From Hormiphora californensis (Eukaryota; Animalia; Ctenophora), in NCBI GenBank assembly GCA_020137815.1, contig CM035360.1:3286001-3350000 (forward strand): a stretch of DNA of 64,000 nt. Reading direction: 5' to 3'. Both the position numbers and the translations under genes were made by a program. The notes under the pieces are model-generated. The model did not search any database. It was given only the letters and a program-made list of their open reading frames with translations, and was not told the origin of the DNA. Every line of letters begins with the position of its first letter. The stretch's first letter is position 1. Shown in pieces: positions 8,654 to 47,642 of the stretch.

Positions 8654-9508
<855 letters not shown>

Positions 9509-10403: not shown

Positions 10404-10454
10404 TATGTCTCATGAGACGTTAGGGTTAGGGTTAGGGTTGGGTTTACGGTTGGG

Positions 10455-17488: not shown

Positions 17489-17927
17489 AAGCCTATGGGT
17501 CAACCCTAACCCTATCCCTAACGTCTCATGAGACATATGTCTCATGAGACATGTCTCATGATACACTCATGAGCACATGTAGGTCAAAACGTCTCATGAG
17601 CGCTCATGAGACATTGAAACAGAGATGGGATGAGACATATGTCTCATGAGCGCTCATGAGCAAGGTCTCATGAGCACTCATGAGCGCTCATGATACACTC
17701 ATGACACACTCATGATACACTCATGAGCGCTCATGAGACGTTGGAACACCTAAAAACGTCTCATGAGCGCTCAAGATACACTCATGATACACTCATGACA
17801 CACTCATGATACACTCATGAGCGCTCATGAGAGGAACGGACAGGTTCTTCCGACTTACCTCCAATCTCCTACCGTGTTACCGGTTGCCATGCTACGCAGT
17901 CTGTCCGACGTCCGTTCGGTCCTTTAA

Positions 17928-19218: not shown

Positions 19219-19297
19219 TATTTCCCAGATCTCAGTATGGGTTCCGGAAGCATCAGAGCTGTCTCACCTGTAGTTGAATCAACCGGCTTCGTTGGTT

Positions 19298-21940
19298 TAG
19301 TAGAGTCGATAACTACATCGACCTCTCCCAATTGTTCCAGTTTTTGTCACATCTGTTTGGAGCCTCGACACGACCTCTAAACAGGTGTTACTTTTTCACA
19401 AACTGTTTTCATCTTGGTGTAATCAGCAGTTGAAATGTTGCTGATCATAACAAAAACCTGACTAAATTTTTTCAACTTGGGGTAAAACCATGGGTGTCAA
19501 AAGTTAGCTCTAGGTCCCCTGAGTAACCATCCGGAGACTCTAAGAGATATTTCAAGCCGTTCTCCCGTAATCATTAATCCCGGTGGAGAAAAAAATACAA
19601 TGCGGACGTACGTGAGCGCTGGCAGGCTGTTTACATGTTATTGTATGTCTCTCACTCTCTCCGGAAAAACCGCACGTGCGGTTGCGCCGCGCGAGATAAC
19701 TCTTTCTCAAGGGGGAGAAAAGAGAGAGACGCACATTAAAGTAAGAGTGGCGCGCCGTGTTTTCTCACAAAAATTAGTGGATGAACGGGGAGTACCACCA
19801 GGACCATTGGTACGGTATCGAAAATTTCCAATTCTGTCTCGTTCATTAGTTATGACGTAATATGTTCATTATTTAAACTTTTATAAAATTGCTCTTCAGA
19901 AAAATCCGTGCATTGTGGATTGAAATGGATGCTTGCATCGTGTTCAGCGTCAAAAAATAGCCGGGGTACCAAATTTTGGTGTCTCTACCTTGTCTGTGAC
20001 ACGAGATATTGACAAATATAAAAAACGACCAAAATGGGTGAGAGAGAGTTTGTTATCTTTGGGTGCTAGTTGTTTGTGCGCGCCACCCAACTGTAACAAA
20101 CTCTCTTTCTCTCACTTTGGTCGTTTTTGATAATTGTCGATATCTCGCGTCACAGACAAGGTAGAGACACCAAAATTTGGTACCCCGACTATTTTTTGAC
20201 GCTGAACACGATGCAAGCATCCATTTCAATCCACAATGCACGGATTTTTCTGAAGAGCAATTTTATAAAAGTTTAACCCTTTGGGGACGATTGGGTCACA
20301 GGTGACCCAGTACTTTGAATCCATTTAGCGTCTTTATAGATCATGTTTGAAAGTTTTAAATTGTTTCCAGGGTTGAAACATACATTTTTCTACCATTTTG
20401 AGGTCGTTTTGAGCCTCTGAAGTTGTCGACTTCGGAAAACAGGGCTAAAACAGTGCATTTGGTAGGCAAAATGGGTAGTTTAATGGCCATATCTCAAAAT
20501 TGGTAAGAGTATGCTTAAAATGGACTTGGAAAATGCAAGAAAAGTGTGTATTTTACCCCGGGGTAAAGTTCCAGGGTGATATTGCAAATTTTCTGTCTGG
20601 CGGCGCCAGACCCCAATTTGATTCAGTGCGCTCAGATGGGTCGCGGCGCCAGACAGCAAATTTTGTGCCTCTCAGAGGCCTTCAAAGTGCTGGGTCACCT
20701 GTGACCCAATCGTCCCCTAACGCTAAAACAGAAATTTGCATTTTACGAGCATTTCTAAAGGAATGGCCGCCGATAAAAGTCCAAAACGGCATTTTTTAAA
20801 CAGGTGCTAGCGACTAACCGACTCCATCATTGTTATCTCAACATCCAAGGGAGTCGATGAAAAAAAATTTGAGATCCGTGCTCCTTCAGAAAATTTTTCA
20901 TCTCGGCCAATTTTGAAATTCTAAAATCGGCTACATATGAGATAGAGAGGTCCATAGGGTGTGCAAAATGTGCAGAATGGCCGGGTTTATATAAGTGTTA
21001 TGAAGAAACATAGGGCCTAGAATGAGCGGTTTTCGAGTTATGGGGCAAAATAGCTGCGAAATCTCAATTCCTGTTTTAGCGTTAGGGGACGATTGGGTCA
21101 CAGGTGACCCAATAGAAATACAGGTGGTAGAACCAAAATTCCTTTTCCTACGTTCAAGTAGGTTCAAAGTAAGTGTCTCCAGAAAGTTTTAGAGAAGTCT
21201 GTCGACAGGGGGCTTATCGCGATATATCGTCCCCAAAGGGTTAAATAATGAACATATTACGTCATAACTAATGAACGAGACAGAATTGGAAATTTTCGAT
21301 ACCGTACCAATGGCCCTGGTGGTACTCCCCGTTCATCCACTAATTTTTGTGAGAAAACACGGCACGCCACTCTTATCCTGCATTTTCGGAACGTGTTCGT
21401 CTCAACACTGCGCGTCGCTGACTGTACCAAACCCGGGCGAACAAGCTAACAATAGTGCAATTACATGCGTGCGATGTACTATATCGCATGGAAGTTCACT
21501 ATTGTTAGCTCGCCCACCCGGGTTAGCTCGATCACCCGCGACGCGCAACGTTGAGACGAACACGCTCCGAAAAGAGAGCATTACTTTAACGTTATACATT
21601 AAAGTTGAGGTTGTAGGCAATTGCACGTACGTCCATACTCAAATATGTGCTCTACCGGGATTAATGATTACAGGAGAACGGCTTGAAATATCTCTTGGAG
21701 TCTCCGGATGGTTACTCAGGGGACCTAGAGCTAACTTTTGACACCCATGGTTTTACCCCAAGTTGAAAAAAAATAGTTCGGTTTTTGTTATGATCAACAA
21801 CATTTCAACTGCTGATTACACCAAGATGAAAACAGTTTGTGAAAAAGTAACACCTGTTTAGAGGTCGTGTCGAGGCTCCAAACTGATGTGACAAAAACTG
21901 GAACAATTGGGAGAGGTCGATGTAGTTATCGACTCTACTA
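19298..21940. mobile_element. Foldback element with TAG..CTA ends and a 3-bp TSD (Academ-like)
   Basis: ~280-bp TIRs TAGTAGAGTCGATAACTACATCG; TSD GTT. Confidence 0.85.
19740..21585. mobile_element. Foldback with TTAA TSD and AG..CT ends (Kolobok-like), nested in 19298-21940
   Basis: TTAA-AGTAAGAGTGG..; the right TIR is split by a 205-bp MITE (21376-21580, TTA duplication). A fragment recurs at 44785-44850. Confidence 0.8.
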
Positions 21941-26629: not shown

Positions 26630-27113
26630 TACTATGACATCCATCCAGGATCACGTCGTCACACTGACGGTAGGGTGTCACGTATTTCCGTCAAATTTGC
26701 ATTCGATATAGTTAGATGTATTTACCTCAACGTGAAATGTGTCAACCTAAACATTTCCCGTGGTGCCCCATTTTAATCAGCTCATTTTGCGGATAAATTA
26801 TGGGCTTTACTTTGATCGGTGAGTACTGGATATGCAGTAAATGGTTGACCTCATTGAATAAATAATGACTAATCATTTGTCCTGGAAAGCTCGGACAGTA
26901 AATATTTGTTGAGCATCGTCGTCCTCGAGTACTCTACTTATTAAAGCTGCCAACACTAGGCGTCTTGATGTGAAAAAATAAGTAAAAAATTAAAAAAGAG
27001 CCCCCTAGATCGATCGTTAGACTAGACCTTCTTCTTGGTCCTGATGGTTCGGAAATCACTCGTACTGCTTCCTGGAATCAGCGCGGTCGCCGCGGAAAAT
27101 CTCGATGATATGC

Positions 27114-27157
27114 GAGTTTCAAACTTTTCAACACTACTTTAAACAAATTAATTTGAG
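27114..27157 (+). other. Spliced-leader exon copy at the 5' end of LINE A
   Basis: GAGTTTCAAACTTTTCAACACTACTTTAAACAAATTAATTTGAG. 41 nt are identical to 39307-39347(-). It matches my recollection of the Pleurobrachia SL, which is unverified here. Confidence 0.85.
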
Positions 27158-27178
27158 GTGCGGCATCCTCCACCTCAA

Positions 27179-30110
27179 ATGATTTCAGAAGATATGTCCT
27201 CTACAAATACAACTGAGGAACAACTGCGGATAATCTCGGAGCTGGTAGCTGAAGCGGATACCCCTGTCAAGGAGGTGCTCCAAGCCTATGATCCTGAGTT
27301 AACCTATGAGGAGATGCTACCGAAGATCGAAACACTCCCTGTAAGTGACCTAGAGGCTACTGCAGCTTTCCTCGGACAAGAGGTGACATGTGTGACTGGA
27401 GCGAAAAAATACCACTCAGAGAGAACACTGTCAGACTGGATTATCATGAGGACTGAGGCTCTCTTTCCCCAAACATGTAGAGAGTGTAGTGAATCCTACA
27501 CGGTGAAAAGGACTGATACACCCCCTGTTCGGTGTAACTATTGCGATGCTGGACTTCACAACTGTGCGGCTATCCGTGCTGAAGCTGGGAACAAAACCAA
27601 CACAAGGAGCCGAATATGGATGTGCAACGACTGTGTCTCAAAACATACTATTGAGAGGTTCAACAGTCACCTACCTGAGGGAGGTCCTCCAAACCCTACT
27701 CTTAATTCAACTCGACGCAGTTCAAATAGAGAGGTATTGGACAGAAGGACCAGTCAGCCTGCTGGCGGACGGAACGATCTTGCTGGCAGAAGGAATAATG
27801 GCCCACCTACCGGTGGAGATACAGGTGCGGCATCCTCCACCTCAAATGATTTCAGAAGATATGTCCTCTACAAATACAACTGAGGAACAACTGCGGATAA
27901 TCTCGGAGCTGGTAGCTGAAGCGGATACCCCTGTCAAGGAGGTGCTCCAAGCCTATGATCCTGAGTTAACCTATGAGGAGATGCTACCGAAGATCGAAAC
28001 ACTCCCTGTAAGTGACCTAGAGGCTACTGCAGCTTTCCTCGGACAAGAGGTGACATGTGTGACTGGAGCGAAAAAATACCACTCAGAGAGAACACTGTCA
28101 GACTGGATTATCATGAGGACTGAGGCTCTCTTTCCCCAAACATGTAGAGAGTGTAGTGAATCCTACACGGTGAAAAGGACTGATACACCCCCTGTTCGGT
28201 GTAACTATTGCGATGCTGGACTTCACAACTGTGCGGCTATCCGTGCTGAAGCTGGGAACAAAACCAACACAAGGAGCCGAATATGGATGTGCAACGACTG
28301 TGTCTCAAAACATACTATTGAGAGGTTCAACAGTCACCTACCTGAGGGAGGTCCTCCAAACCCTACTCTTAATTCAACTCGACGCAGTTCAAATAGAGAG
28401 GTATTGGACAGAAGGACCAGTCAGCCTGCTGGCGGACGGAACGATCTTGCTGGCAGAAGGAATAATGGCCCACCTACCGGTGGAGATACAGGGTCGGACG
28501 AGTCACCCCCTCCCTGCCGACGGACCTCCCTGCCGACGGGTCGGCAGGGAGGTCATTCGGCAGGGAGGGCGGGATATGGGGGTATAATGTCCTACGTGCC
28601 GACGAAATTGGGATGAGATCGCCGTCGGCACGTAGGACATTATACCCCTATTTTCTGCCCTCCCTGCCGACGGACCTCCCTACCGATCGGCAGGGAGGGC
28701 CGTCGGCAGGGAGGACATTTTACCCCTCCTTTTACCCTCTGTGCCGACGGTCGGCAGGGAGGACATTTTACCCCTCCTTTTACCCTCTGTACCGACGATC
28801 GGCAGGGAGGACATTTTACCCCTCCTTTTACCCTCTGTACCGACGATCGGCAAGTAGGGCCGTCGGCAGGGAGGACATTTACCCCTCCTTTTCAGCCTCA
28901 CTACCGACGATCGGCAGGGAGGACATTTACCCCTCCTTTTCACCCTCTGTGCCGACGAAACCATAACCCAAACCATCGCCCTAACCATCACCCTAACCAC
29001 CGCCCTAACCACCGCCCTAACCCTAACCCTAACCCTTACCCTAACCCTTACCCTAACGATACTCAGAGGAACAATACACAGTGAACTCTTCGTATTTGGC
29101 CTGCCGGCCAAATTCTCGAGCTCACAGAAGGAGTGAAACGCCCTCCCTACCGATCGTCGATACAGAGGGTAAAAGGAGGGGTGAAATATCCTCCCTGCCG
29201 ATCGTCGGTACAGAGGGTGAATAGGAGGGGTAAATGTCCTCCCTGCCGAATACTCTCTCGGAGTCAGTTTTCGGCAGGGAGGGCGGAATATAGGGGTCAA
29301 ATGTCCTACGTGCCGACGGCGATCTCATCCCAATCTCGTCGGCACGTAGGACATTATACCCCTATATCCCGCCCTCCCTGCCGAATGACCTCCCTGCCGA
29401 CCCGTCGGCAGGGAGGTCTGTCGGCAGGGAGGGCGGGTACCGGGTCGGACACGGAGGTTTGTAAATTCTACCTGCAGAGGAGATGCCGACACGGCAAAAA
29501 CGGAACCGCCAGGGTTGGAAACAGAACCTGCCCAAAAGCCCACCCCACCCTGTGTAAAAAGTTCTGTAACTATGGAACCATGAGGAGATTTGGATGTAAT
29601 ACTGAAAATTGCAACCTATCTCATCCTCCCCTCTGTAAGAACTCAGAGTTACGTCACCAGTGCTTTAAACAAAACTGCATGAAGCAACATCTAAAAGATA
29701 CTCAGCGGAGCCCGCCTTTTAGAGTTGATGAAGCACCCCGGAACACTGGTTTAAATGCTCGGAATGATCGTGACAGAAACCAATCCTCTCGGAGCAGGGG
29801 TGTAAACCAAGCACCTCCAAATGAACCAGGAATCTGGTCGTCTGAGCCAACTAGGGATAGGATACCAAGCAGATCCCAATGGCCTCAGGATCAGAACAGG
29901 GGCACGAGGCCTGACCCAGACCCGGCTTTTTTAGACGCCATCATCGACCGTCTCAGGGACTCTATAGCCGGGATAGTGAGGATGGAAATGAGGAATCGCC
30001 CGGAGCGGGAGCCCGACCAACAGCACTACAGCTCCCAGCCGACCCAACTCCCTCCAGGAATGGGCAACACATACAGTCCTCATCATCAGAGGGACAGACG
30101 GTCTTACTAA
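27179..30110 (+). pseudogene. LINE A ORF1 (PHD-like plus CCCH fingers), disrupted
   Basis: Aligns with the intact ORF1 of LINE B. Broken by a 667-bp tandem duplication and a MITE at 28500-29441. Confidence 0.88.
28500..29441. mobile_element. MITE with a 9-bp TSD (MuDR/Merlin-like)
   Basis: TSD GGGTCGGAC at 28491-28499 and 29442-29450; CCCTGCCGAC subrepeats; CCCTAA core. Confidence 0.85.
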
Positions 30111-30151
30111 ATACAGCAGGACCCTCAGTTCCCAGTAATCTCTCAAAACTG

Positions 30152-33121
30152 TTGCTTCTAAACGCCCGTAGCCTGAACCCGTCTGCGGGCAGTGAGGCAA
30201 GGTTCAAACTGGAGAACTTGAAGGACACCATTATGAACTCAAATATTCCTGTCATGGCTGCAGCCATCACGGAAACTTGGTGGCGGGCAGAATACTCGGA
30301 CGCACAGGTTAATATTCCTGGTTTTTCTGTCATCCGCAGCGATCGGGAAGGTAGGGTTGGGGGTGGCTGTGCCCTCTATCTCCACTCATCGGTGACCCCT
30401 TCCGATCAGATCACATTTTCAGATGAAAGCAACAGTGTTGTGGCGGTATACATTCCAAACATGAACTGTATTATCTCGTCAGTATACAGGGCTCCCACAG
30501 TGCCTGTGAACCTAGTTCTTGGGATTTTGGAGGAATTTATCTCACGTCACTCGTGTGAAGATTGTCCTCCAGATGTGTTTACGCTTGGTGACTTTAACAT
30601 GCCTCAGGTAAACTGGACATCAGTATCAGCGGATCAGGGAAATGCTCTGGTTGACTTTGCTGAGAGAAATTTCCTTACCCAGTTGGTTACAGAGCCTACT
30701 AGAGGACGGAACATTTTAGACATTGTACTTACAAACAGGGTGGATTATGTTTTTGACACCGATGTATCAGCCACCCAGATGTCGGACCACTCCATGGTGT
30801 CTTGTGTCCTCGGAATCGGGATCCACCAGTCCAAAACAGAACGTACAGCAGCTGGAAAAGGATTCAAGGCCCTTGACTACCACAACGCAGATTTTACTGC
30901 TGCAGGAGAGGAGCTGAGCAGTATTGATTGGGACACACTCCTATCCTCTTGTATTTCAGACGATGATGGCCACTCAATTGTGCAGTGTATCAGAGAGAAG
31001 ATACTAGAGGTATTTGAAAAACACAGCAAGAGAAAGAGGTTTGGTACCCAGAGAAAGAGAGATCCCTACCTGAGAAGACTGAAAAGGAGGCAGAAAAAGC
31101 TGAACTCTCGGATGAAACTGGCCAAGCAGAGATGCTCACACCAGTCCCTCATCGATAAACTCGAACGCAAGATAGACAAGACAGCCGATAAGATTAAGGC
31201 GTACTTGTTAGGCCTGCTGGAAGTAAAGGAGAGGAAAGCCATTGACACTATCAAATCAAATTCACGGTTTTTCTGGTCCTTTGTCAACAAGCACCGAAAA
31301 ATCAAATCGAGTGTGGCTCCACTCCTGAGACCTGATGGTACAGTGACTGATGACCCTCTGGAAAAGTCAAATATTCTCCAGTCGCAATATGTAGGAGTAT
31401 TCAGTGATCCGTCCATGTGCTCGGTTGAGGAGGCTATCAAGGACATTCCTTCTACGACCTGCACGCTAGATGAACTTGACTTCACCCCTGGTTGTATTGA
31501 AGCTGCACTGGCTGAATTGGACCCCTACGCTGGAGCACCTTCAGATGACATACCTGCGGTTATACTATCAAAGTGCCGGAAACAGCTAGCATACCCACTT
31601 TGGTTGCTCTGGAACCGTTCATTCACTGAGGGTGTTGTACCAGGTTGTCTCAAACGGCAACAGGTGACCCCAATTTTCAAAAAGGGTTCAAAGATGGAGG
31701 CTAAAAACTATCGCCCTGTTGCCCTCACATCCCATATGATAAAAACTTTTGAAAGGGTTGTGAGGAACAAAGTTGTGGATCACCTGGAGGGAAATGGAAT
31801 CTTCAATGATGGTCAGCACGGCTTTCGGAGAAATAGGAGTTGTCTGACCCAACTTTTGAACCACTATGACAACATCATGCGTGAACTGAATAACGGTCTG
31901 GAAGTGGATGTTGTTTATTTGGATATGGAGAAGGCGTTCGATAAAGTCGATATCAAGGCTTTATTGGGCAAGCTTGAGAAGTATGGTATACGTGGAAGAC
32001 TTCTCCGCTGGATAAGTGACTTTCTTTCAGCTAGAATACAGACAGTAGTGGTGGATGGAGTTCAGTCTCGGCCGGAACTCGTCATTAGTGGAGTCCCCCA
32101 GGGCACTGTTCTTGGCCCGCTTCTGTTCTTGGTTTATATGATAGACATTGAATCACTTCTTGCTGGAACAGTCCTAACTTTTGCAGATGACTCCAAGCTG
32201 TGGAAAGCGATCAGGTCACTCAACGACAGAGATAACCTGCAGCTGAGTCTTAATGAATTTGGACGTTGGGCTTCAGACAACAATATGTCACTCCATCAGG
32301 ATAAGTTTGAGGTGATAAATTATACACTTCGCTCCACCCAACTCCTGAGGGAGCTTCCTTTCTCCACTGACAATTATCTTTACAATGGTCCCGGAGGCGA
32401 GGCAATATCACCAAGTTTCACTGTGAGAGATCTAGGGGTCCTTGTATCTGCAGACTGCACTTGGTCAGAACACATAGGCAGCATTACTGCCAAGGCTAGA
32501 CGCATGAGTGGCTGGGCACTTAGTGTATTTCGGGATAGATCCGATGATACTATGCTAACGTTACTGAAGTCCATCATTAGGCCTCAGGTGGAGTACTGTT
32601 GTCCATTATGGAGCCCGGTGAAAAAGTCCGATATCGCCCTGGTTGAAGAGGCTCAGAGACACTTCACACGTAGGATTGAGAGCTGTTCCGGCATGGGGTA
32701 CTGGGATCGGCTCCAACATCTTGGTATCTTGTCCCTCCAGCGGCGTCGTGAGCGATACATGATTATCCATGTCTGGAAGGTTCTTCATGAGGTAGTTCCA
32801 AACGGCACGGGTCTCCTGTTTACTGAGCACACCCGTCTTGGTACCAGAGCATTGGTCCCCCGTTACAATTACCTCGCTCAAAAATCCATATCTGGCCCTT
32901 ATGACTCATCATTCGGTGTTAGAGGAGCACAGTTGTGGAATTCCCTACCCCGTGCAGTGAGAGAGGCAACATCACTGCTCGAGTTGAAACAGTCCCTTGG
33001 GTCCTACTTAACCACCATCCCCGACCAGCCACCTGTCCGCGGTTACCGGGTGGAGCACAGTAACTCCTTGATTGATTGGAGAAATGACCCCAGTGTGTTT
33101 AAAGAGATGGGCGACTCATAG
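30152..33121 (+). CDS. LINE A ORF2: APE endonuclease plus reverse transcriptase (frame open from 29915)
   Basis: LNARS, ITETW, GDFN, SDH; NYRPVALTS, QHGFR, GVPQG, FADD; no internal stops. Confidence 0.95.
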   Translation: MLLNARSLNPSAGSEARFKLENLKDTIMNSNIPVMAAAITETWWRAEYSDAQVNIPGFSVIRSDREGRVGGGCALYLHSSVTPSDQITFSDESNSVVAVYIPNMNCIISSVYRAPTVPVNLVLGILEEFISRHSCEDCPPDVFTLGDFNMPQVNWTSVSADQGNALVDFAERNFLTQLVTEPTRGRNILDIVLTNRVDYVFDTDVSATQMSDHSMVSCVLGIGIHQSKTERTAAGKGFKALDYHNADFTAAGEELSSIDWDTLLSSCISDDDGHSIVQCIREKILEVFEKHSKRKRFGTQRKRDPYLRRLKRRQKKLNSRMKLAKQRCSHQSLIDKLERKIDKTADKIKAYLLGLLEVKERKAIDTIKSNSRFFWSFVNKHRKIKSSVAPLLRPDGTVTDDPLEKSNILQSQYVGVFSDPSMCSVEEAIKDIPSTTCTLDELDFTPGCIEAALAELDPYAGAPSDDIPAVILSKCRKQLAYPLWLLWNRSFTEGVVPGCLKRQQVTPIFKKGSKMEAKNYRPVALTSHMIKTFERVVRNKVVDHLEGNGIFNDGQHGFRRNRSCLTQLLNHYDNIMRELNNGLEVDVVYLDMEKAFDKVDIKALLGKLEKYGIRGRLLRWISDFLSARIQTVVVDGVQSRPELVISGVPQGTVLGPLLFLVYMIDIESLLAGTVLTFADDSKLWKAIRSLNDRDNLQLSLNEFGRWASDNNMSLHQDKFEVINYTLRSTQLLRELPFSTDNYLYNGPGGEAISPSFTVRDLGVLVSADCTWSEHIGSITAKARRMSGWALSVFRDRSDDTMLTLLKSIIRPQVEYCCPLWSPVKKSDIALVEEAQRHFTRRIESCSGMGYWDRLQHLGILSLQRRRERYMIIHVWKVLHEVVPNGTGLLFTEHTRLGTRALVPRYNYLAQKSISGPYDSSFGVRGAQLWNSLPRAVREATSLLELKQSLGSYLTTIPDQPPVRGYRVEHSNSLIDWRNDPSVFKEMGDS

Positions 33122-33275
33122 AAATGTGTTTTGCTTTTCATTGTCATTTGGCTGATACATATAACCTGCTGACTTTCCATGTCATCTGAGTGTTGGCTCC
33201 TTTTGAGCTAAAGCTTTGTGTACAATACTAAATTTATTTACGAATGTTTACGAATGTTTACGAATGATGATTTGC

Positions 33276-33690
33276 GAGAGGTACACTATGATTCTTGTGT
33301 GGAAAGTGTACAACAATGAGATACCCAACAGTACTGATATGTGTTTCGTCGACAGGCACCGCTCGGCGCTCTGACCCTAGAGCTGTCGTCCCTCGTCCCC
33401 TCAATACTCGTACGAGGCTCAACGATCTAACCTATATGAACAATCATTTGCGGTACTGGGGGCAAGGTTGTGGAACACTTTGCCTCGATCTGTAAAGGAG
33501 GCCCCAACTCTTTATCAGTTCAAATCTCAGCTAGGTAGTTTCCTCTCTACCATTCCGGACTGTCAGGCCAATGCTCTGACCATGCAGTTCTCGCGCGCTG
33601 TCAGGCCAATGCTCTGACAGATTCCGGATACACCCCCCATCAGCGGTTATCCTGCTCAAGCAAACAGCAACTCAATACTAGAGTGGTGTC
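33276..33690 (+). pseudogene. Old CR1-group 3' fragment
   Basis: ERYTMILVWKV..GARLWN.LP..IPD.P remnants. Confidence 0.65.
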
Positions 33691-34170
33691 CATGATGCGT
33701 GTTAGTGTGTTATGTGTCGCTGTGCTGTGAGTGTACTGAGTATTGACTCTTTTTAGGAGGTTTATCTTTTAACTTTTTAAATACTAGCGCACCCATTGGG
33801 TGCGCCTCAAGTAAGGGTTTTTTGCCCCTTTGAACGTGAAAAAAACGGTTGCCATGGCAACTGAATTGGTAACTATGGGGACTGGCATGTTGTTGGGCAC
33901 GTCGCGCCCCCCATGTTCGCAGGCAAGGCATGTTGAAATTCATTCGAAAATATCAAAAAACTTCCACTGGAACTTCAGAAAGTGTGAATAACAGCTTTAC
34001 AGCTTTCGTCATATGAAGTGTTTTATGAAGGAGCAGCCTGTCGCTTAGATACCGCCTAACGAACGACCATCACTTCGACGTTCATCTCCAAATTATAATA
34101 GAGATCCTAAGTGTTACGCAAATTTATGAATTTGAATTTGAATTTGAATTTGTTGAGGTGTAAAGTTTAT

Positions 34171-34318
34171 GAGGCCCCTCGGAAATGTTCAAGTCATGCA
34201 CAATCAAGTCACGCCCACCAATCACAGCGCAGAACGCGCGAAGCACTCCGCGTGTTCTGAGCTGTGATTGGTGGGCGTGACTTGATTGTGCATGACTTGA
34301 ACATTTCCGAGGGGCCTC
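34171..34318. mobile_element. 148-bp palindromic MITE with GAG..CTC ends and AT flanks (a split second copy spans 34506-42462)
   Basis: Near-perfect hairpin. The second copy's left end is at 34506 and the remainder at 42342-42462. Confidence 0.8.
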
Positions 34319-34964
34319 ATTATATTGTGTTTATTATATATTGTGTTTATTATATATTGTGTTTATTACTACGCGCACTTGCAACAGATTTCAAACATCG
34401 CGCGGCGCAATATTTGCGCGTTTACCGCGCGCGCACAAAAAACTAAAATCCAAGGCCAAGCTCGAATTTCGGAAATAAAATTTTTTGATCGAAATTTTTT
34501 ATGATGAGGCCCCTCGGAAATGTTCAAGTCATATTGTTTTGGGAAACTTGTATGGAAATCCCTCGCCGCTTTACGTCGGATCCTGTGTGATAATGAGTGA
34601 TGAAGGCAGCACTCAAGGCTGCCCCAGTGCGATGGCGATGTACAGCCTCGGAATTCTCCCCCTTATCAACCTGGCTGATATGGGTGACATCATACAGTGT
34701 TGGTACGCTGATGATGCCAACGCTGCAGGAAATCTGACAGGTCTCTTGGACTGGTTCTCGCTAGTGCAGACACAGGGACCGGCATTTGGTTACTTCGTAA
34801 ATCCTGAAAAGTGTAACCTGATTGTTCATTCATAACATTCATAAATAAATTAAGCATTGTACACAAAGTTTCAGCTCAAAAAGAGCTAACACTCAGACAC
34901 CAAAAGGAATCGGGTTTTAATGGGCAGCCAAACAACATAGAAAAGCAAAACACCCCTGAATGAT

Positions 34965-37900
34965 TTACTCTCTGAAAACACTCGGATCGTTTCTCCAATC
35001 CAACAGGGAGTTACTGTGCTGAACACTATACCCACGAACCGGTGGCTGGTCAGGGATGGTGGACAGATATTTACCGAGCGACTGCTTTAGCTCGAGTAGG
35101 GAAGCTGAAGATCTCACTACCCGAGGCACTGCATTCCATAACTGAGCTCCTTTTACGCCGAATGATGAGTCATAGGGGCCAGAGATGGATTTTTGGGCCA
35201 AGTAGTTATACCGAGGGATTACCGCTCTGGTGCCAAGGCGTGGGTGCTCTGTAAACAAGAGACTCGTACTGTTTGGTACTACCTTATGCAAGACCTTCCA
35301 GACGTGGATAATTGTATATCGTTCTCGGCGCCGTTGAAGGGACAGGATTTTGAGGTGATGGAGTCTGTCCCAGTAATTCATGCCCGAACAACTCGCGATC
35401 CTGCGGGTGAATTGTCTCTGTGCCTCCTCAACCAGTGCAATATCTGACTTTTTGACAGGGTTCCATAGGGGACAACAGTATTCAACCTGGGGTCTGACGA
35501 TGGATTTGAGTAGGGTTAGCATGGTGTCATCCGATCTATCCCGAAACACACTAAGTGCCCAGCCACTCATCCGACGAGCCTTAGTCGTGATGCTGCCGAT
35601 ATGCTCCGACCATGCACAGTTAGTTGAAACAAGGACTCCTAGGTCTTTGACAGATTCGCTAGGGGATATCGTTTCGCCTCCAGGCCCACTGTAGGAGTAG
35701 TTTTCATTGGAGAATGGCAGCTCTCTTAACAGTTGGGTGGAGCGAAGAGTATAGTTCATAACTTCAAATTTGTCCTGGTGTAGGGACATGTTGTTATCTG
35801 TCGCCCAACGTGCAAACACAGCTAGACTTTTCTGGAGATCCTCTCTATCATCCAATGACTTGATTGCCTTCCACAGCTTGGAATCGTCTGCGAAGGTGAG
35901 GACTGTGCCAGAAAGAAGTGTCTCTATGTCTATCATATAGACTAAAAACAACAAGGGACCAATAACTGTACCCTGTGGGACACCACTGATGACCAATTCC
36001 TCCCGAGACTGAGCACCATCTACCATCACTGTTTGTACTCTTTCTGAAAGGAAGTTGTTGATCCAACGGTGTAGCTGTCCCCGAATACCGTATTTTTCCA
36101 ATTTTGCCATCAAGACCTTGACATCGACTTTGTCAAAAGCCTTCTCCATGTCTAAATACACAACATCCACTTCGTGTCCGTTATTCAGTTCTCTCATGAC
36201 ATTATCGTAGTGGTTTAAGAGTTGAGTCAAGCAGCTTCTGTTCCTCCGGAAACCATGCTGGCCATCGTTGAAGAGCCCATTTCCCTCCAGATGATCGACA
36301 ACTTTGTTTCTTACAACTCTCTCAAATGTTTTAATCATGTGGGAGGTGAGTGCGACAGGCCGATAATTTTTTGCCTCCATTTTGGATCCTTTCTTAAACA
36401 CGGGTGTTATATATTGGCGTTTAAGGCATGTTGGTACGACACCCTCATGGAAAGAACAATCCCAAAGTAACCATAAGGGGTATGCCAACTGTTTCCGGCA
36501 CTTGGACAGTATAACCGCTGGTATGTCCCCTGGTGGTGCTCCAGCGTAAGGATCTAACTCAGCCAATGCATCCTCAATACAGCCGGGAGTAAAATCAAGA
36601 TTGTCCAGTGCGATGGTCGTAGAAGGAATATCCTTAGTAGCCTCCTCGGCCGAACACTTAGCAGGATCGCTAAATACCCCCACATACTGTGACTGAAGAA
36701 TGTTTGATTTCTCCAGGGGATCATCGGTAACTGTGCCATCAGGTCTTAGGAGTGGGGCCACACTAGACTTGATTTTCCGATGCTTGTTTACAAATGACCA
36801 GAAAAACCGTGGATTACATTTGATAGTGCCAATAGCCTTTCTCTCTCTTCCTTCCAGAAGCCCAAGGAGGTGAACCTTTATCCTATCACCAGTCTTCTCA
36901 ATTTTACGGTTAAGCTTATCAATCAGGGACTGGTAGGAACATCTCTCCCTAGCAAGTTTTAACCGGGAGTTCAACTTTTTCTGCCTCCTTTTCAATCGTT
37001 TCAGATAGGGATCGCTCTTCTTTAAATTGCTAAAAACCTTCTGTTTAGAATGCTTTTCGAACACGCCTAGAACAATCTCTGTAATACATTGGACATAGGC
37101 GTGGCCGCCATCTTCCATGTCATATGGAGCTAAGTGTTCGTCCCAGTTTATAGCGTCTAGCTCCTCACGTGCCCCGGTGAAGTCAGCATTGTGGTAATCA
37201 AGTGCCTTGAACCCTCTAGCAGCTCGTTTGCAGTCTGACTTAGCCTGTTTCAGCCCAACTCCCAGAATGCAAGAAACGAGAGCGTGGTCAGACATTTGGG
37301 TCGCCGTTACATCCATGTCGAGGACATAGTCCACTCTATTCGTAAGAACAATGTCCAAGATACTCTTACCTCTCGTGGGCTCCGTCACTAGTTGGGTAAG
37401 AAAATTTTTCTCAGCAAATTCAACCAGGGAGTTACTCTGGTCGGTTGGAAGATTTGACCAGTTTACATGGGGCATATTGAAGTCACCTAGCACAAAAACC
37501 TCAGGCGGACAATCACCGGAGGAATGGCGTTGAATAAACTCCTCCAGGATTCCGATGACTTGGAGTGGGTTTGATGTGGGGGCCCTGTAAACTGTTGCAA
37601 TAACGAAGTTTGAGTTAGGAATGTAGACTGCAACGACACTATTACAGTTATCTGAGAAAGCAACCTGATCAGAGGGGGACAAGGATGAATGAAGATATAG
37701 GGCACAGCCACCCCCCACCCTGCCGTCCCGATCACTGCGTATAATAGAATAACCGGGGATACCCACCTGGGCATCTGAAAATTCAGCCCGCCACCAAGTT
37801 TCAGTAATGGCTACGGCCATGGCAGGAATATCAGAGTTGCAAATAGTGTCTTTAAGATTCTCCAGCTTGTACCTTGTTTCGCTACTTGCACTCGGGTTTA

Positions 37901-38204
37901 GACTGCGAGCATTTAGCAGCATAAGTTTGGAAAGGTTGCTGGGAACTGAGGGTTTCTCGGAAGCTAATACGACCGTCTCCCCCTCTGCTGATGAGGGCTG
38001 AAGGTGTAACCTGTTCCTGCTGGCAGTTGAGCCGGTTGGGTGTGTTGGGAGTATAACTGGTCTGGAAGTAGAACTGGTTCTGGCTCTGGACGATTCCTCA
38101 TCTCCGTTCTCACTATCCCGGCTATTGAGTCCCTCAGCCGGTCGAGGACTGCCTCTAAAAAAGCAGCATCTGGTCCAGGTCTCTGATTCTGAGACTGGGA
38201 CCAT
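34965..38204 (-). CDS. LINE B ORF2: APE endonuclease plus RT
   Basis: Same motifs as LINE A ORF2; overlaps ORF1 in the -1 frame. Confidence 0.95.
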   Translation of the reverse strand: MVPVSESETWTRCCFFRGSPRPAEGLNSRDSENGDEESSRARTSSTSRPVILPTHPTGSTASRNRLHLQPSSAEGETVVLASEKPSVPSNLSKLMLLNARSLNPSASSETRYKLENLKDTICNSDIPAMAVAITETWWRAEFSDAQVGIPGYSIIRSDRDGRVGGGCALYLHSSLSPSDQVAFSDNCNSVVAVYIPNSNFVIATVYRAPTSNPLQVIGILEEFIQRHSSGDCPPEVFVLGDFNMPHVNWSNLPTDQSNSLVEFAEKNFLTQLVTEPTRGKSILDIVLTNRVDYVLDMDVTATQMSDHALVSCILGVGLKQAKSDCKRAARGFKALDYHNADFTGAREELDAINWDEHLAPYDMEDGGHAYVQCITEIVLGVFEKHSKQKVFSNLKKSDPYLKRLKRRQKKLNSRLKLARERCSYQSLIDKLNRKIEKTGDRIKVHLLGLLEGRERKAIGTIKCNPRFFWSFVNKHRKIKSSVAPLLRPDGTVTDDPLEKSNILQSQYVGVFSDPAKCSAEEATKDIPSTTIALDNLDFTPGCIEDALAELDPYAGAPPGDIPAVILSKCRKQLAYPLWLLWDCSFHEGVVPTCLKRQYITPVFKKGSKMEAKNYRPVALTSHMIKTFERVVRNKVVDHLEGNGLFNDGQHGFRRNRSCLTQLLNHYDNVMRELNNGHEVDVVYLDMEKAFDKVDVKVLMAKLEKYGIRGQLHRWINNFLSERVQTVMVDGAQSREELVISGVPQGTVIGPLLFLVYMIDIETLLSGTVLTFADDSKLWKAIKSLDDREDLQKSLAVFARWATDNNMSLHQDKFEVMNYTLRSTQLLRELPFSNENYSYSGPGGETISPSESVKDLGVLVSTNCAWSEHIGSITTKARRMSGWALSVFRDRSDDTMLTLLKSIVRPQVEYCCPLWNPVKKSDIALVEEAQRQFTRRIASCSGMNYWDRLHHLKILSLQRRRERYTIIHVWKVLHKVVPNSTSLLFTEHPRLGTRAVIPRYNYLAQKSISGPYDSSFGVKGAQLWNAVPRVVRSSASLLELKQSLGKYLSTIPDQPPVRGYSVQHSNSLLDWRNDPSVFRE

Positions 38205-39262
38205 TGGACTCCACTCGACACCCTCGCCCTACTGGGTTCACTTGACCAAGGTCCTGCATCAGGTGCTTGGTTTTGACCTGTGGTTCGTGATTGGGCTGAA
38301 GGGATTCTTTCACGGCGGTTCCTCTCATTTCCAGTCCCACGTGATGTTCCTTCTCCAGGCCTAGTCCTCAGGGTGTCCTTCAAGTGATGTTTGGTACAGC
38401 TCAGTTTATAACACTGGTGCCGTAACTCGGAATTCTTACACAGTGGAGGATGGAAAAAGTTACATTCAGTGTTCTGGCATCCAACGCTCCTCATAGATCC
38501 ATAGTTGCAAAACTTTTTGCACAGTGTAGGGTGAGATTTGGGACAAGATCTGCCACTAACTAGCTTCGTCCCATCTCTCCCGTGTCTGCACCTCCTTTGC
38601 AAATAAAACCTACACACTTCGTTTCCTGGAACACCCCTCTCTCCCTGTTCCGCTGGGTCCGGTAGGTCCTCTCGTTCCTCTGCAGTTCTACTGATGTGCC
38701 TTCCCAGGATCTGCTCTCGGTTTGAACTACGTCTGGTCGAGTTATGACTAGGATCTGGACCACCGTCAGGTAGATGGCTAGTAAACCTTTCCAGAGTTTG
38801 TTTACCGAGGCAAGGGGAGCACACCCAAATTCGGCTTTTGATAGCAGTGCTGCTGGCCTCTTCTCGTATCTTTGCACAGTTGTGCAGACCGCCACCACAG
38901 ATGAAGCACCGAGCAGGGGGATTTTCATTTCTCTTCACGGAATACTTTTCGGTACACTCGCTGCATGTTTGGGGACCAAATCCCTCTATCCGCATGATGA
39001 TCCAGTCAGCCAGGGTTGTTACTGAATGGTATTTCTGCACTCCAGACGCCACACATCTAACCTCTTGGCCAAGGAAGATAGCAGTTGCCTCCAGATTACT
39101 AGCTGGGATAGCCTCCAGTTTGCTGAGGTTTTCCTCATAGTCCAGAGAAGGGTCATAAACTTCAATAACCTCCTTAACCGGTGTTCTGGCATCCTCTTTC
39201 AGCTCAGAGAGTACAGCAGCAAAGACGGCTGGATCTGTGTCATTAGCATGGTCCATTGCCAT
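37964..39262 (-). CDS. LINE B ORF1: PHD-like plus tandem CCCH zinc fingers
   Basis: CSEC..CFIC...HNC..WVCSPC; CRFYLQRRCRH..CPKSHP..CKKFC..CNFFHP..C..C..CTKHH. Confidence 0.9.
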   Translation of the reverse strand: MAMDHANDTDPAVFAAVLSELKEDARTPVKEVIEVYDPSLDYEENLSKLEAIPASNLEATAIFLGQEVRCVASGVQKYHSVTTLADWIIMRIEGFGPQTCSECTEKYSVKRNENPPARCFICGGGLHNCAKIREEASSTAIKSRIWVCSPCLGKQTLERFTSHLPDGGPDPSHNSTRRSSNREQILGRHISRTAEEREDLPDPAEQGERGVPGNEVCRFYLQRRCRHGRDGTKLVSGRSCPKSHPTLCKKFCNYGSMRSVGCQNTECNFFHPPLCKNSELRHQCYKLSCTKHHLKDTLRTRPGEGTSRGTGNERNRRERIPSAQSRTTGQNQAPDAGPWSSEPSRARVSSGVQWSQSQNQRPGPDAAFLEAVLDRLRDSIAGIVRTEMRNRPEPEPVLLPDQLYSQHTQPAQLPAGTGYTFSPHQQRGRRSY

Positions 39263-39306
39263 ACTAGACACTACAGTGGAATATTTGAAAACGCACGGGC
39301 GCGCGC

Positions 39307-39347
39307 CTCAAATTAATTTGTTTAAAGTAGTGTTGAAAAGTTTGAAA
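39307..39347 (-). other. Spliced-leader exon copy at the 5' end of LINE B
   Basis: TTTCAAACTTTTCAACACTACTTTAAACAAATTAATTTGAG, identical to 27117-27157. Confidence 0.85.
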
Positions 39348-40619
39348 GTTGTTAAAGAAGAACATTTGGAAGAGGCACGGGAGCTATTCAAAGATGTAGG
39401 TGTCAAGATTACATCGGCCGGAGCTCGCCACCTCGGTGCTGCAATTGGAATGGAGTCATACAGAGCGGAATATGTATCGGAAAAGGTAGCAGAGTGGGCT
39501 GCAGCTCTTATGAATCTCGTAGACGTTGCAAAGACACACCCACACCTCGCATACAGCAACTTCGTGAGAAGTTTTAAGTGTAAGTGGGGATATCTACAAC
39601 GAACCATCCCTGACATCGGCCCTCTATTCCAGCCTATCGAAGACATCATCCGGCACAAGTTCATCCCTCTAGTCGTTGGAAAACATGTGTCTGATCTTGA
39701 ACGGAGAGTCCTGGCTCTGCCGATAAGGATGGGTGGTTTGGCAATTGAAGACCCGACGGAAGCTGCAAAACACCAATACAGCAGCTCGAGGTTCATCAAC
39801 ACCCCACTCGTTGAATTGATCCTTTCAGACGGGTCTGAAGGCGGCACCATAGCAAATGTAGAGTCCTGTGCAGCTAAAAACAAAAAGGAGTGTGAAGAAG
39901 CCGCTCAAGAACGGGCTGAGCTTGAGCTGAAATCGATAGTGTCTGAGGCAGATGATCGCCTGAAACGGGCACTGGAGCTTAACTCTGAACAGGGATCTTC
40001 AAGCTGGTTATCAGCCAGACCACTCAAACACCTTGATCATGAGTTTAACCAGAGGGAATTTGTTGATGCCATTCGTCTAAGATACGGCTTTCATTTCTCG
40101 GATCTTCCTTCCAAATGTGGATGTGGGGCTGACAATAATGCAGACCATGCCCTAATCTGCAAGGTTGGTGGGTTCGATATTTGGAGACACGATCATCTGA
40201 GGGACACCATGGCCGAGTTGTTCAGGTATGCAGGATTGAAACCGGTGAATACAGAACAGCTGCTTCTTTTTTTTATCGGGAAAAACATTTAAACCGAAAA
40301 TTATAAAAGCAAATAGTTTCGTCAAATATCTGTCGTCCTCCGGCTCAGGGCTCAACCAACGTGGCTTGAACGCCACCATGACAGGTCACACCCAACACTA
40401 CCGTGTGAAGGACATACATTTCCTGTCAGTGCCAACACCAGGGACGATGCCCGAATGGACATAGTATGCCGAGGTCTATGGCGGGATATGGAGGCATCCT
40501 ACCTCGATGTGCGGGTGTTTCACCCTAATGCTCCCTCCTACCAGAAAACATCAATCGCTCAGCTACACAGAACTCACCAGAACCAGAAGAAAATGGCCTA
40601 TTTGAGGAGGGTTCTAAAC

Positions 40620-41750
40620 CCTGTACTCGACCTGAAAGAATGCCTCTCAAGTGCAGACTCGATGTCTTTTGCCGATGACACTAAGCTGATCCAGGCTATC
40701 CAGACCCTTCTTGACCAAGTGGAACTTCAAGAGGACATCAAAAATGTTAGTCAGTGGTCGTCCAATAACAACATGAGGCTTCACGAGAAGAAGTTTCAGC
40801 TAATGATATACCCCCTAGGCAAGTCCCAGTTGCTTAGGGAGCTACCTTTCACGTCTGAAACCCTGAGCTATGTTACGGAAGCAGGTACGACTGTGGAACC
40901 TGAACAGCACGTAAAGGACCTCGGTGTATGGTTGTCGGCGGATGGTACATGGACTTATCACATCAATGACATCGTTAGGAGGGCCAACCGGATTGCGGGA
41001 TGGATTCTGAGCGTGTTCAGATGTAGATCTCAGGAGGTATTACTGACTCTATACAAGGCCTTGGTTCGTCCCATTCTAGAGTACTGCTGCTTGGTTTGGT
41101 CACCGTCCAAGGTAGCTGACATCCAGGCGCTGGAGAACGTTCAGCGAGCGTTCTTAAGAAAGATCTATGGGATGAATGAGCTGACCTACTGGGAGCGGTT
41201 GGAGACTCTGAAAATCATGTCCCTTCAGAGGCGACGCCAGAGGTACGAGCTTATACATGTCTGGAAAATCTATCATGGACTAGTACCTAACTGTGTAGGA
41301 ATGGAATTCCAGACAGGCCGCTTGGGGATACAGGTCAAAACGCAGAAGTATCCTTATTGGGCTGATAGGAGGCGAGCTACCCAGCTGTTCAACTCGTTCA
41401 GTTACAGGGCTCCTCAGTTGTGGAATAAACTGCCCCGAGAGGTGACCCTTTGTGAAACATTGGCAGGGTTTAAGGCTAGCCTGGGTTCTTTCATGAAGGA
41501 GTACAAGGACAGGCCTCCAGTGAGAGGGTACCCCACGGTCCCGAATGACTTCAGTCAGGCGGCGAAATCTTAGCTGTGTGTGATTTTGCTGTGTGTGATT
41601 TTGCTGTGTGTGATTTTGCTGATGACTGACCACATGACGGGGCGATTCGATTTTAATATTTTGAGTTAAGACTTGACAAGGAGGACCCACTCGCTGGGAA
41701 ATCCGCACGCGTTTAGATTGTGTAAATTTAATTTGATTTGATTTGATTTG
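40620..41750 (+). mobile_element. 5'-truncated CR1-group LINE inserted in the CRE endonuclease domain
   Basis: FADDTKL..VKDLGV..LEYC..LQRRR..PPVRGY, with an (ATTTG)n tail. The CRE frame reads VLN|VEQ across it. Confidence 0.88.
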
Positions 41751-42193
41751 ACGTAGAGCAGGGTAGCTTCACTCCTCTTGTGTTTGCTACTTCAGGAGGC
41801 TTCGCACCAGAGGTTAAACGAGTTCTGGAATGCGTTGGACACAAAATCTGCTCCAAGCACCAAGAAGGACTCAGTGAGACGATGTCTTTTATAAGACAAA
41901 AGCTCAGATTTAGCCTGTTGAGATCAACCTTAGTAGCATTGAGGGGCACTAAGAGGCGTGTGGTACCATTTATGCCGAGCGAAATTGATTTCAGAGTGAC
42001 GTAATTTATTCTGTGTTTACCTTTATAAATCGCTAGGGACGTGCGTGGTGTACCAGGAGTGGTGAATTATGCAGCCATTCTTTATTGTGTCTCTACCTCT
42101 TTTCTCCGTGTCCTAACACAATATACCTATGGTACACCCGCACACGTGTTCCTTTTTCACTCTGATTTCTCTTTTCTGTTCAAAAAAAAAAAG

Positions 42194-42819: not shown

Positions 42820-43800
42820 AAGTTGAATGATGACAAGTTTGAAGTTCTGCAATACTCAATAAAACCCTGCTCCTAAAGCAGTTGCCATTCTCCCAGGAAC
42901 TCCAGACATACTACACACCAAAGGGTCTTACAATTGAACCCAAACCCTGTGTCCGTGACTTAGGAGTTCAGCTCCTAACAAACGACCTTTCTTGGGAAAA
43001 CCAAATAGGAAAAATGACGTCGGATGCCCGAAAAATGAGTGCTTGGGTTTTAAGAGCCTTCAAAACAAGAGACAAAAGGACAATGACTATCCTTTACAAA
43101 AGTCTTATTCGCAGCAAATTAGAATACTGCTGCCCACTCTGGGACTCACCAAAAATCTCGAATATCCAGAATGTTGAAGCGATTCAAAGGAAGTTTACAA
43201 AACGGATCACTGGAATGGGAAACGTAAACTACTGGGAGCGTTTGAAAATCCTAAACATCCTCTCCCTTCAACGCCGCCGGGAGCGCTATACCATTGTCAT
43301 GATGTGGAAAATGGCCAATGAAAAAGCCCCCAACAATATTGGCATTCGCTTTTACAACTATACCCGACTTGGAAAAAAGGCAGAGATCCCTACATGCCCC
43401 ACAAACACCCAGAAATCGGTCCAGACGAAGCACCACAACTAGTGGAAGCTCTTACGGTATTCCCACGACCGTGGGAAAAGAGAGATAGATAGAAATACTA
43501 AGAGAGAGAAATTCCTCTCTCTTAGTATTTCTATCTATCTCTCTTTTCCCACGGTCGTGGGAATACCGTAAGAGCTTCCACTAAACTCGTTTTCAAGTAG
43601 AGCGACACGGTTATGGAATACCCTCCCCAGCGAAGTGAACTCAGCGGAAGATTTGGACTCATTCAAGATACTTCTGGGGAAATGGCTGAAGAGATTCCCG
43701 GATCGTCCCCCGGTACTCGGATACCAAAAACAGAACAACAATTCAATATTGGACTGGATACGGAATGTTTCCAGGGAGGGGGAGGCTCTGTAAGGAACTG
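42820..43800 (+). pseudogene. CR1-group LINE 3' fragment split by a MITE
   Basis: VRDLGV..LEYCCPLW..LQRRRERY..LWNTLP. The MITE at 43440-43583 has TAG..CTA ends and an AAC TSD. Confidence 0.85.
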
Positions 43801-46152: not shown

Positions 46153-46328
46153 GCAAACGTATTGCACTCGGCATGCTTTAAACCCAGACCACGACTCAGT
46201 GTTATTCAAAAGTCTTGAGCTGACGTGGCATCTGTATTTATGCTGATAGAGAGGAAAATAATGCGGACAACAAAAAAAAAGAATTCGACGCCAATTTTCG
46301 GACAACAACTCACTTTCGACGTGTTTAA

Positions 46329-47632
46329 GGGTACACCTGGCGTTTTTCATCATCGAGTGCCCAACCAAATGACTTCACCAGGGTTTAGGTCATACAAAAT
46401 GGACCTCAAATATGCAATTTTAGCCCTAAAGTCGAATTCATATTTTTGCTACAGCCTATTTTCAAAGTGGCGTTTTTTCAATTTTTGTCGGAATTTTTAA
46501 CCTCAGGACCACTTTTTTTGAGATAGAAACATTAAATTCTTGGAATTTTAAGAGAATATAAAGGTGAATAAGCCCAACGAAGGATTTTTGAAATGGAGCT
46601 TATTTCTGGCCATGAGAACGCTTCACTTTTTTGCTTCTTTGACACGCTGGCTGAGAATGTTCCCATGCTTCATTGGAGATGAAAATCTGGAAATAGTTGC
46701 TCAAAACGATTATCTATGTGGCCTAAAAATTTCGGAACTTTCCCGCCAAAGATGCGGTGTACAGAGCTTGTTTTGTGAAACCCGTCTTTTTGAAAAAAGA
46801 GGGAAATTCCCTGTATCTCAAAAACGGATGATCGTAGAGACCTGCGACCGAGCTTAATCGATTCAGAAGGTCCGATTTTGGGGGAGTCTTCTGAGAGACA
46901 TTTTGCTCCTACTCCAACCGTTTTTGCTGTAATTGCAAAAAACCAATTCTATGAAAAGGGGAAACAACTCTATTCCAGTAGCCTGCTTCGGGCTGATTTC
47001 CCCCTTACTTGCTGATACCTTTTTCGCAATTACAGCAAAAACGGTTGGAGTAGGAGCAAAATGTCTCTCAGAAGACCCCCCCAAAATCGGACCTTCTGAA
47101 TCGATTAAGCTTGGTCGCAGGTCTCTACGATCATCCGTTTTTGAGATACAGGGAATTTCCCTCTTTTTCAAAAAGACGGGTTTCACAAAACAAGCTCTGT
47201 ACACCGCATCTTTGGCGGGAAAGTTCCAAAATTTTTAGGCCACATAGATAATTGTTTTGAGCAACTATTTCCAGATTTTCATCTCCAATGAAGCTTGGGA
47301 ACATTCTCAGCCAGCGTGTCAAAGAAGCAAAAAAGTGAAGCGTTCTCATGGCCAGAAATAAGCTCCATTTCAAAAATCCTTCGTTGGGCTTATTCACCTT
47401 TATATTCTCTTCAAATTCCAAGAATTTAATGTTTCTATCTCAAAAAAAGTGGTCCTGAGGTTAAAAATTCCGACAAAAATTGAAAAAACGCCACTTTGAA
47501 AATAGGCTGTAGCAAAAATATGAATTCGACTTTAGGGCTAAAATTGCATATTTGAGGTCCATTTTGTATGACCTAAACCCTGGTGAAGTCATTTGGTTGG
47601 GCACTCGATGATGAAAAACGCCAGGTGTACCC
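46329..47632. mobile_element. Kolobok-like foldback, copy 2
   Basis: TTAA TSDs; same family as 15528-16830. Confidence 0.92.
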
Positions 47633-47642
47633 TTAAAGTTAA

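Follow-up and report, generated by a model that had tools for sequence, protein, structure and literature searches.

Spliced-leader sequence at the 5' ends of two LINEs in the ctenophore Hormiphora californensis

The stretch of Hormiphora californensis DNA analysed here (contig CM035360.1, positions 3,286,001 to 3,350,000; 64,000 nucleotides, referred to as the window, with positions counted from its first letter) contains two long interspersed nuclear elements (LINEs), called LINE A and LINE B, which both start with the spliced leader (SL) of the host. In each of them the leader lies inside the target-site duplication (TSD). Since it is also absent from the empty sites, ends at the SL donor, and is accompanied by neither the promoter nor the intron of an SL gene, we conclude that the RNA of these LINEs was very probably trans-spliced by the host and then reverse-transcribed to within a few bases of the cap, and that LINE A and LINE B were copied from such RNA. 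An initial annotation of the window had proposed that trans-splicing preceded reverse transcription, and the leader identity, the empty sites and the junctions at the donor support this inference.

The leader and its boundaries in LINE A and LINE B

The features of LINE A are as follows:

27104..27116, +, left TSD, 13 bp; the 3 bases at its end are also the first of the leader 44-mer, so a 10-bp reading is possible too
27114..27157, +, spliced-leader head, a 44-mer equal to the published Hormiphora leader, with the 41-nt core at 27117-27157
27158..27824, +, 5' untranslated region (UTR) of 21 nt and N-terminal part of open reading frame (ORF) 1, ATG at 27179; also copy 1 of an exact 667-bp tandem duplication, which begins at the leader junction
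27825..28491, +, copy 2 of this duplication, lacking the leader and disrupting ORF1; 3-nt microhomology at the joint
28500..29441, no strand assigned, insertion in ORF1 with long inverted repeats; flanked by 9-bp direct repeats at 28491-28499 and 29442-29450
29454..30110, +, C-terminal part of ORF1, 60% identical to residues 215-432 of the LINE B ORF1
29915..33121, +, ORF2 frame, open from stop to stop (APE endonuclease and reverse transcriptase, RT); homology to LINE B begins near 30164
33237..33266, +, 3' tail, a 10-nt unit three times
33266..33278, +, right TSD, pairing with 27104-27116

LINE B, and the older element with RT and a restriction-like endonuclease (RLE) that it interrupts, are composed of:

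34533..34826, +, left piece of the older RT/RLE-type element, labelled CRE-like from its motifs
34822..34826, +, TSD copy at the 3' end of LINE B (TTGTT), 5 bp
34827..34844, -, 3' tail, a 9-nt unit twice
34965..37922, -, ORF2, 985 aa (APE endonuclease and RT), without internal stop
37964..39262, -, ORF1, 432 aa, Cys/His-rich, without internal stop
39263..39306, -, 5' UTR of 44 nt, in which the first AG ends at 39271, 36 nt behind the leader
39307..39347, -, spliced-leader head (41-nt core), with one extra base, 39348, between it and the TSD
39349..39353, +, TSD copy at the 5' end of LINE B (TTGTT), 5 bp
39354..41995, +, right pieces of the older element, to about 40691 and then 41747-41995, broken by further insertions

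An exact search of the whole window finds the 41-nt core at 27117-27157 (+) and 39307-39347 (-), and these are its sole occurrences at up to three mismatches. None of 100 shuffles gave a match to it. The initial annotation had described two full-length, clearly diverged LINEs headed by these identical 41 nt and with no alignment behind them. The shared head is thereby confirmed. Both ends are indeed present in LINE A and LINE B is intact, but the ORF1 of LINE A is broken. The two elements are related rather than remote, with 73.5% identity at the DNA level and 81% in ORF2, and at this divergence identity of the leader cores at 41 of 41 positions has a probability of ca 3e-6. Immediately behind the leader, by contrast, only 22 of the first 40 nt are alike in a global alignment, which is within the range of 12-25 scored by most unrelated pairs, so that on this point the description was correct. 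The leader is also richer in AT than the window (77% vs 56%). The ORF1 start codons follow at the distances given before, 21 nt in LINE A and 44 nt in LINE B.

The 44-mer at the head of LINE A is identical at 44 of 44 positions to the published leader of H. californensis, which is found on 56% of the Iso-Seq reads and in 718 genomic copies (PMC8527503). The initial annotation had assigned it to a pleurobrachiid ctenophore, and such a host is very likely given named ORF2 relatives from Mnemiopsis and Bolinopsis. In the part of the genome paper available to us, the text does not connect the 718 copies to transposons (PMC8527503).

As had been claimed, the core is enclosed by the TSD in both elements. 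The two TSD copies of LINE A are alike at 12 of 13 positions and overlap the start of the leader, the first G of the 44-mer being indistinguishable from the TSD; only these two places in the window are within one mismatch of the 13-mer. For LINE B, the proposed TTGTT duplication is present at both ends, but one extra base separates it from the leader.

The insertion site of LINE B provides a further line of evidence. We compared four of 22 listed sequencing runs, three of DNA and one labelled as RNA (X22), against the LINE B region only. All three DNA runs, from two organisms, contain an empty-site joint from 34821 to 39349, which skips 4527 bases, that is, the element, its leader and one TSD copy. 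These contigs could stem from further members of the interrupted family and not from the allele. In either case they lack the leader, which means that the target of LINE B was without it; a leader already resident in the empty site would have spoken against the proposal. The interrupted element gives the same joint at the protein level. Namely, when its RT frame is read across the two sides of LINE B and aligned to 51 relatives, 28 show no gap, 21 a gap of one residue, and two are outliers. The four closest relatives are exactly colinear. The claim that removal of LINE B restores the frame of its host element therefore holds, with 49 of 51 relatives colinear within one residue.

Two interruptions of LINE A deserve comment, as together they break its ORF1. 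The 667-bp duplication may stem from a template jump during reverse transcription, from a later tandem duplication or from an assembly error. Back-splicing was considered as another origin and rejected, as no placement of the joint yields both a GT donor and an AG acceptor. The insertion of about 940 bp with inverted repeats is likely a non-autonomous DNA transposon, and telomere-like repeats are found inside it near 28960-29040. A TTTCAG is present at 27183-27188, 26-31 nt behind the leader of LINE A and upstream of a second in-frame ATG.

Leader-headed loci in metagenome contigs

Metagenome contigs were scanned for an exact match to 33 nt of the leader, which gave 18 matches in 17 loci. The leader had no match in the genome contig or viral contig collections, and a search of the window against Rfam gave no hit.

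Two of the matches are SL RNA genes, both in the locus L012; they have a GT donor behind the exon and form, together with 5S rRNA genes, an alternating array with a unit of 778 bp. In the predicted structure the donor falls within the 3' arm of the first hairpin (z -2.76). With regard to an Sm site, a U-rich stretch is found downstream in L012. The base ahead of the first A of the exon is a C and not a G, which suggests that the G opening the published 44-mer may be derived from the cap, although L012 perhaps belongs to another species. Six more matches open their contigs and are followed by non-LINE ORFs, and Pfam names four of these (cathepsin, CCT, PSD13 and CDC37); judging from the layout of the contigs, these six host-type sequences appear to be RNA-derived. 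The possibility that the 41-mer is missing from host mRNA 5' ends and SL RNA genes, which would have made it a motif of the LINEs, does therefore not apply: the leader heads host-type ORFs and is the exon of an SL RNA gene.

The remaining ten matches head element-like ORFs, and seven of them are LINEs according to ORF2 homology. One (L010) falls in the lineage of LINE A and LINE B, while L002, L004, L005, L008, L011 and L017 constitute a second lineage. The four long ORF2s of the latter are 23-26% identical to those of LINE A and LINE B and form a separate group in a tree made by a quick method with 20 rows, for which 14 of 120 listed relatives were used. In the other three loci (L009, L014 and L015) the contig contains a single ORF but no ORF2, and L009 and L015 are candidate ORF1-only, non-autonomous elements. 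Six loci have at least 38 nt of flank and are thus surely genomic; four are LINEs, two have only an ORF, and none of the six heads a recognisable host gene.

The boundaries of the leader are very similar in all these cases. In all 12 heads (LINE A, LINE B and the ten loci) the match to the SL gene ends at most 2 nt from the donor and never extends beyond the exon start. Most heads lack 1-8 of the first bases of the exon, and nine of the 12 start within its first three bases. No head is followed by a second leader (0/12), and no upstream or intron sequence of the SL gene was found in the flanks of the heads. The first bases behind the leader are common to L002, L005 and L017.

Some further details of these loci were observed. 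A TTTYAG that resembles a second acceptor stands directly behind the leader in L009, L010 and L015, and L014 aligns as though it were joined just behind such a TTTYAG. These four loci share a short C-rich motif in the 5' UTR. In L015 (467-1656), the leader and a single ORF are followed by an AAT tail; the protein encoded there belongs to large ctenophore clusters. The ORF2 of L005 has an in-frame Gly-rich tandem repeat between the endonuclease and RT regions.

Proposed trans-splicing and the alternatives to it

We now turn our attention to how the leader could have become part of the elements. In the mechanism that we propose, the LINE would be transcribed, either by read-through from the host or from a promoter of its own, and its RNA trans-spliced at an acceptor just upstream of ORF1. 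Target-primed reverse transcription would then read this RNA to within a few bases of the cap, and the new copy would own an AT-rich leader ending in AG, that is, a ready acceptor. A later transcript running through the old leader could be re-spliced at that AG, in which case a fresh leader would replace the old one and no tandem relic would be left. We consider it somewhat more probable than the opposite that such a renewal of the leader repeats in each round. It can be suggested, more tentatively and with the balance slightly against it, that several unrelated ctenophore LINE lineages and their ORF1-only derivatives share a cycle independent of promoters, in which host read-through provides the transcription and SL trans-splicing rebuilds the 5' end and the cap each time.

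One contig of the DNA run X5 bears on the renewal step. In it the leader is fused to the LINE B 5' UTR immediately downstream of the first AG (39271), as use of a second acceptor would give. A deletion at a microhomology of 2 nt also fits this joint.

A number of points weigh against the proposed trans-spliced origin. No leader-bearing LINE RNA was seen; the RNA-labelled run X22 covered the leader only, and the uncovered body of LINE B is no evidence in either direction. The second-acceptor joint is a single contig in one of three DNA runs; its short side has 27 letters, its position is ambiguous by 2 nt, and the likeness was set to 88, and a long contig of run X1 over the 5' part of LINE B enters the leader by 10 letters only and does not bridge it. 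Among the ten element-like metagenome loci, four have at most 17 nt ahead of the leader, and for these an origin from RNA or a cut at the contig end is possible. In L004, L005, L008, L009 and L015, the search for TSDs gave only matches of 6-7 nt, at the level of chance; the repeat contigs have perhaps been collapsed there. It is also important to point out that the identity of the leader in the metagenome loci is not evidence, because the scan demanded an exact match of 33 nt, and that it is what follows the leader that counts; only the identity between LINE A and LINE B is unbiased, as the metagenome loci were chosen by their leader match. The same scan is blind to LINEs without a leader, and SL-less source (master) copies are possible among the LINEs.

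The strongest alternative is a leader acquired in one or a few capture events and inherited since then as a fixed head, like the heads of short interspersed nuclear elements (SINEs), under selection as a promoter or translation signal and without renewal by splicing. DNA alone cannot separate a refreshed leader from a conserved one, and the 5' UTR motifs that related elements share behind the leader could be internal promoters. In nematodes an SL exon can act as a promoter element, although a literature search on this point found nothing. On the other hand, a fixed head requires that at least two lineages, which are 23-26% alike, captured the leader separately and each time exactly at the donor. 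LINE A and LINE B also keep 41 of 41 bases while the next 40 nt fail to align. The loss of 1-8 first exon bases seen in most heads would be expected to accumulate without renewal, and the second-acceptor joint in X5 points, weakly, to repeated splicing. We therefore regard a fixed head as unlikely.

Another option considered was a template switch, in which the reverse transcriptase jumped from the LINE RNA onto SL RNA or a leader-bearing mRNA. Chimeras of U6 and L1 are a precedent for this. Leader-bearing RNA is abundant (56% of reads, PMC8527503), and the duplication in LINE A, with its microhomology joint, starts at the leader junction and could come from a template jump. However, jumps are expected to vary in position, while all 12 junctions lie at the 3' end of the exon, the match continuing into the SL intron for 2 nt at most, and the common first bases behind the leader in L002, L005 and L017 imply that the junction is fixed in that lineage. 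This scenario is thus very improbable.

Targeted insertion into SL RNA genes, in the style of NeSL, CRE, SLACS and CZAR, could be favoured by the tandem, multicopy arrangement of these genes in L012 and by the element beside LINE B, which its motifs suggest to be CRE-like. For LINE A and LINE B this option is refuted by the absence of any flank matching the upstream or intron sequence of the SL gene, and their leader is inside the TSDs, the empty sites are without it, and the endonuclease is of the N-terminal APE type and not an RLE; we give it next to no weight.

An assembly artefact, with leader reads joined to LINE ends, can practically be dismissed as well: the repeat contigs of metagenomes can be chimeric, the TSDs there did not match and the available text of a study on Schistosoma raises the same caveat (PMC5832876), but both insertions in the window are independent and have TSDs, what is missing at the empty-site joint is exactly the element with its leader and one TSD copy, and the layout is repeated in independent metagenome assemblies.

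Two observations on leader-bearing contigs of the sequencing runs can be added. In the DNA runs they run into many unlike sequences on both sides, with 15-23 contigs per side and run and an agreement of 0.40-0.44. In run X11, one contig turns back inside the leader (39309-39347) with 7 letters between, which resembles two leaders in inverted or tandem order.

Relation to known systems and neighbouring features

LINEs have to rebuild a defined 5' end in each round, and most copies end up truncated. The R2 ribozyme and the L1 promoter are two known solutions to this problem. L1Tc, according to the portions available to us, has both an internal promoter and an HDV-like ribozyme at its 5' end (PMC1874656, PMC3185411, PMC3383444). 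The present elements would be similar to L1Tc, R2 and L1 in having a way to restore the end each time, which here would come in trans from the host spliceosome. If this is true, trans-splicing is part of the life cycle of the element and no promoter is needed at the tip of the LINE; the promoter-independent cycle, if correct, would be a third answer beside internal promoters and ribozymes.

NeSL, CRE, SLACS and CZAR are RLE-bearing retrotransposons that insert into SL genes. They are likewise non-LTR elements (that is, without long terminal repeats, LTRs) in contact with SL sequence, while LINE A and LINE B bring the leader along within the insert and encode an APE-type endonuclease.

The closest precedents are found in other trans-splicing organisms, and the following comparisons concern the parts of these papers that we could consult. 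In parasitic flatworms, 597 loci have partial leaders beside LTR and LINE elements, and an origin from trans-spliced retrotransposons was suggested in passing (PMC12582326); in Schistosoma, six fusions of transposable elements (TEs) with the leader were reported, with an assembly caveat (PMC5832876). These cases are alike in that genomic leaders beside retroelements are ascribed to trans-spliced retrotransposon RNA. They differ in that the leaders are partial and were set aside as by-catch, and the text contains no analysis of TSDs, empty sites or junctions, whereas here near-complete leaders lie in the TSDs of LINEs with two ORFs, together with empty sites and the SL gene. The recycling of mRNA in dinoflagellates is similar, as trans-spliced RNA is reverse-transcribed, integrated and re-spliced at an AG of the old leader (PMC3229502, PMC3942190). 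There, however, the cargo consists of host retrogenes, and tandem relics result because the AG is an internal one, while here the cargo is an autonomous LINE and relics are found in none of 12 heads. In Hydra, about 30% of the TE Iso-Seq reads carry the SL, which makes TE RNA a substrate of trans-splicing in an animal (PMC12220107); this concerns the RNA level, and leader copies in integrated DNA are not described in that text.

Our literature search found no ctenophore report of leader-headed LINEs; Derelle et al. 2010, the Hormiphora and flatworm supplements and Repbase were outside the search. The initial annotation overstated the novelty, as the flatworm suggestion (PMC12582326, PMC5832876) and the SL-bearing TE transcripts of Hydra (PMC12220107) were, from what we could see of them, already published. 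What the present case adds is the evidence at the level of base pairs, the empty sites and the two LINE lineages in an animal, while the idea itself is in print, in passing, for flatworms.

The finding offers an explanation for the hundreds of genomic leader copies and makes the leader a simple marker of full-length insertions. If the promoter-independent cycle is correct, many of the 718 Hormiphora copies would mark full-length retroelement insertions. By the same token, leader matches in DNA call for caution, as they inflate counts of SL genes and can draw spurious first exons into gene models. The case can be tested directly in a ctenophore for which a chromosome-scale genome and Iso-Seq reads exist.

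As to the class of the elements, PF14529 (APE endonuclease) and PF00078 (RT) are above the cut-off in the ORF2 of both LINE A and LINE B. The layout is that of APE-type LINEs, with ORF1 upstream, a 3' repeat tail, a TSD and no LTR; it is intact in LINE B, and in LINE A ORF1 is broken. A domain scan of ORF1 gave only FYVE_2 at E 0.015, below the cut-off, and the Atlas a lead to zf-CCCH at 0.82. Motifs suggest that LINE A and LINE B may be CR1-like and that L004, L005, L008 and L017 may be L2-like. Searches of the PDB returned RTs of L1, R2 and group II introns only, which do not place the clades. The ORF2 relatives that carry names are from Mnemiopsis and Bolinopsis, and the ORF2 of LINE B has no relative in the viral contig collection. 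With the LINEs of the CR1 and L2 clades (Jockey superfamily), as far as the accessible text describes them, the two elements share the two ORFs, the APE and RT domains, a Cys/His-rich ORF1 and short tandem-repeat tails, and a PHD-type ORF1 occurs in both of these clades (PMC4120745).

Several other repeats are present in the window. A variant of the RT/RLE-type element interrupted by LINE B, seen in runs X1 and X5, has 21 other letters in place of 34765-34821 and is also without LINE B (34764-39349). Further LINE pieces related to LINE B are located at 2-262, 616-1317, 8446-9491, 33276-33686, 40611-41573 and 42855-43757. The last three comprise 3' portions that have neither ORF1 nor leader, and the 5' end of the first (2-262) is beyond the window. 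Palindromic elements or elements with long inverted repeats, in multiple copies, are found at 15522-16836 and 46324-47638, at 10403-11396, 14390-14824 and 17501-17864, and at 18021-21940. Finally, 48193-48828 (-) contains a RING finger frame, which is possibly a host gene exon or a retrocopy.

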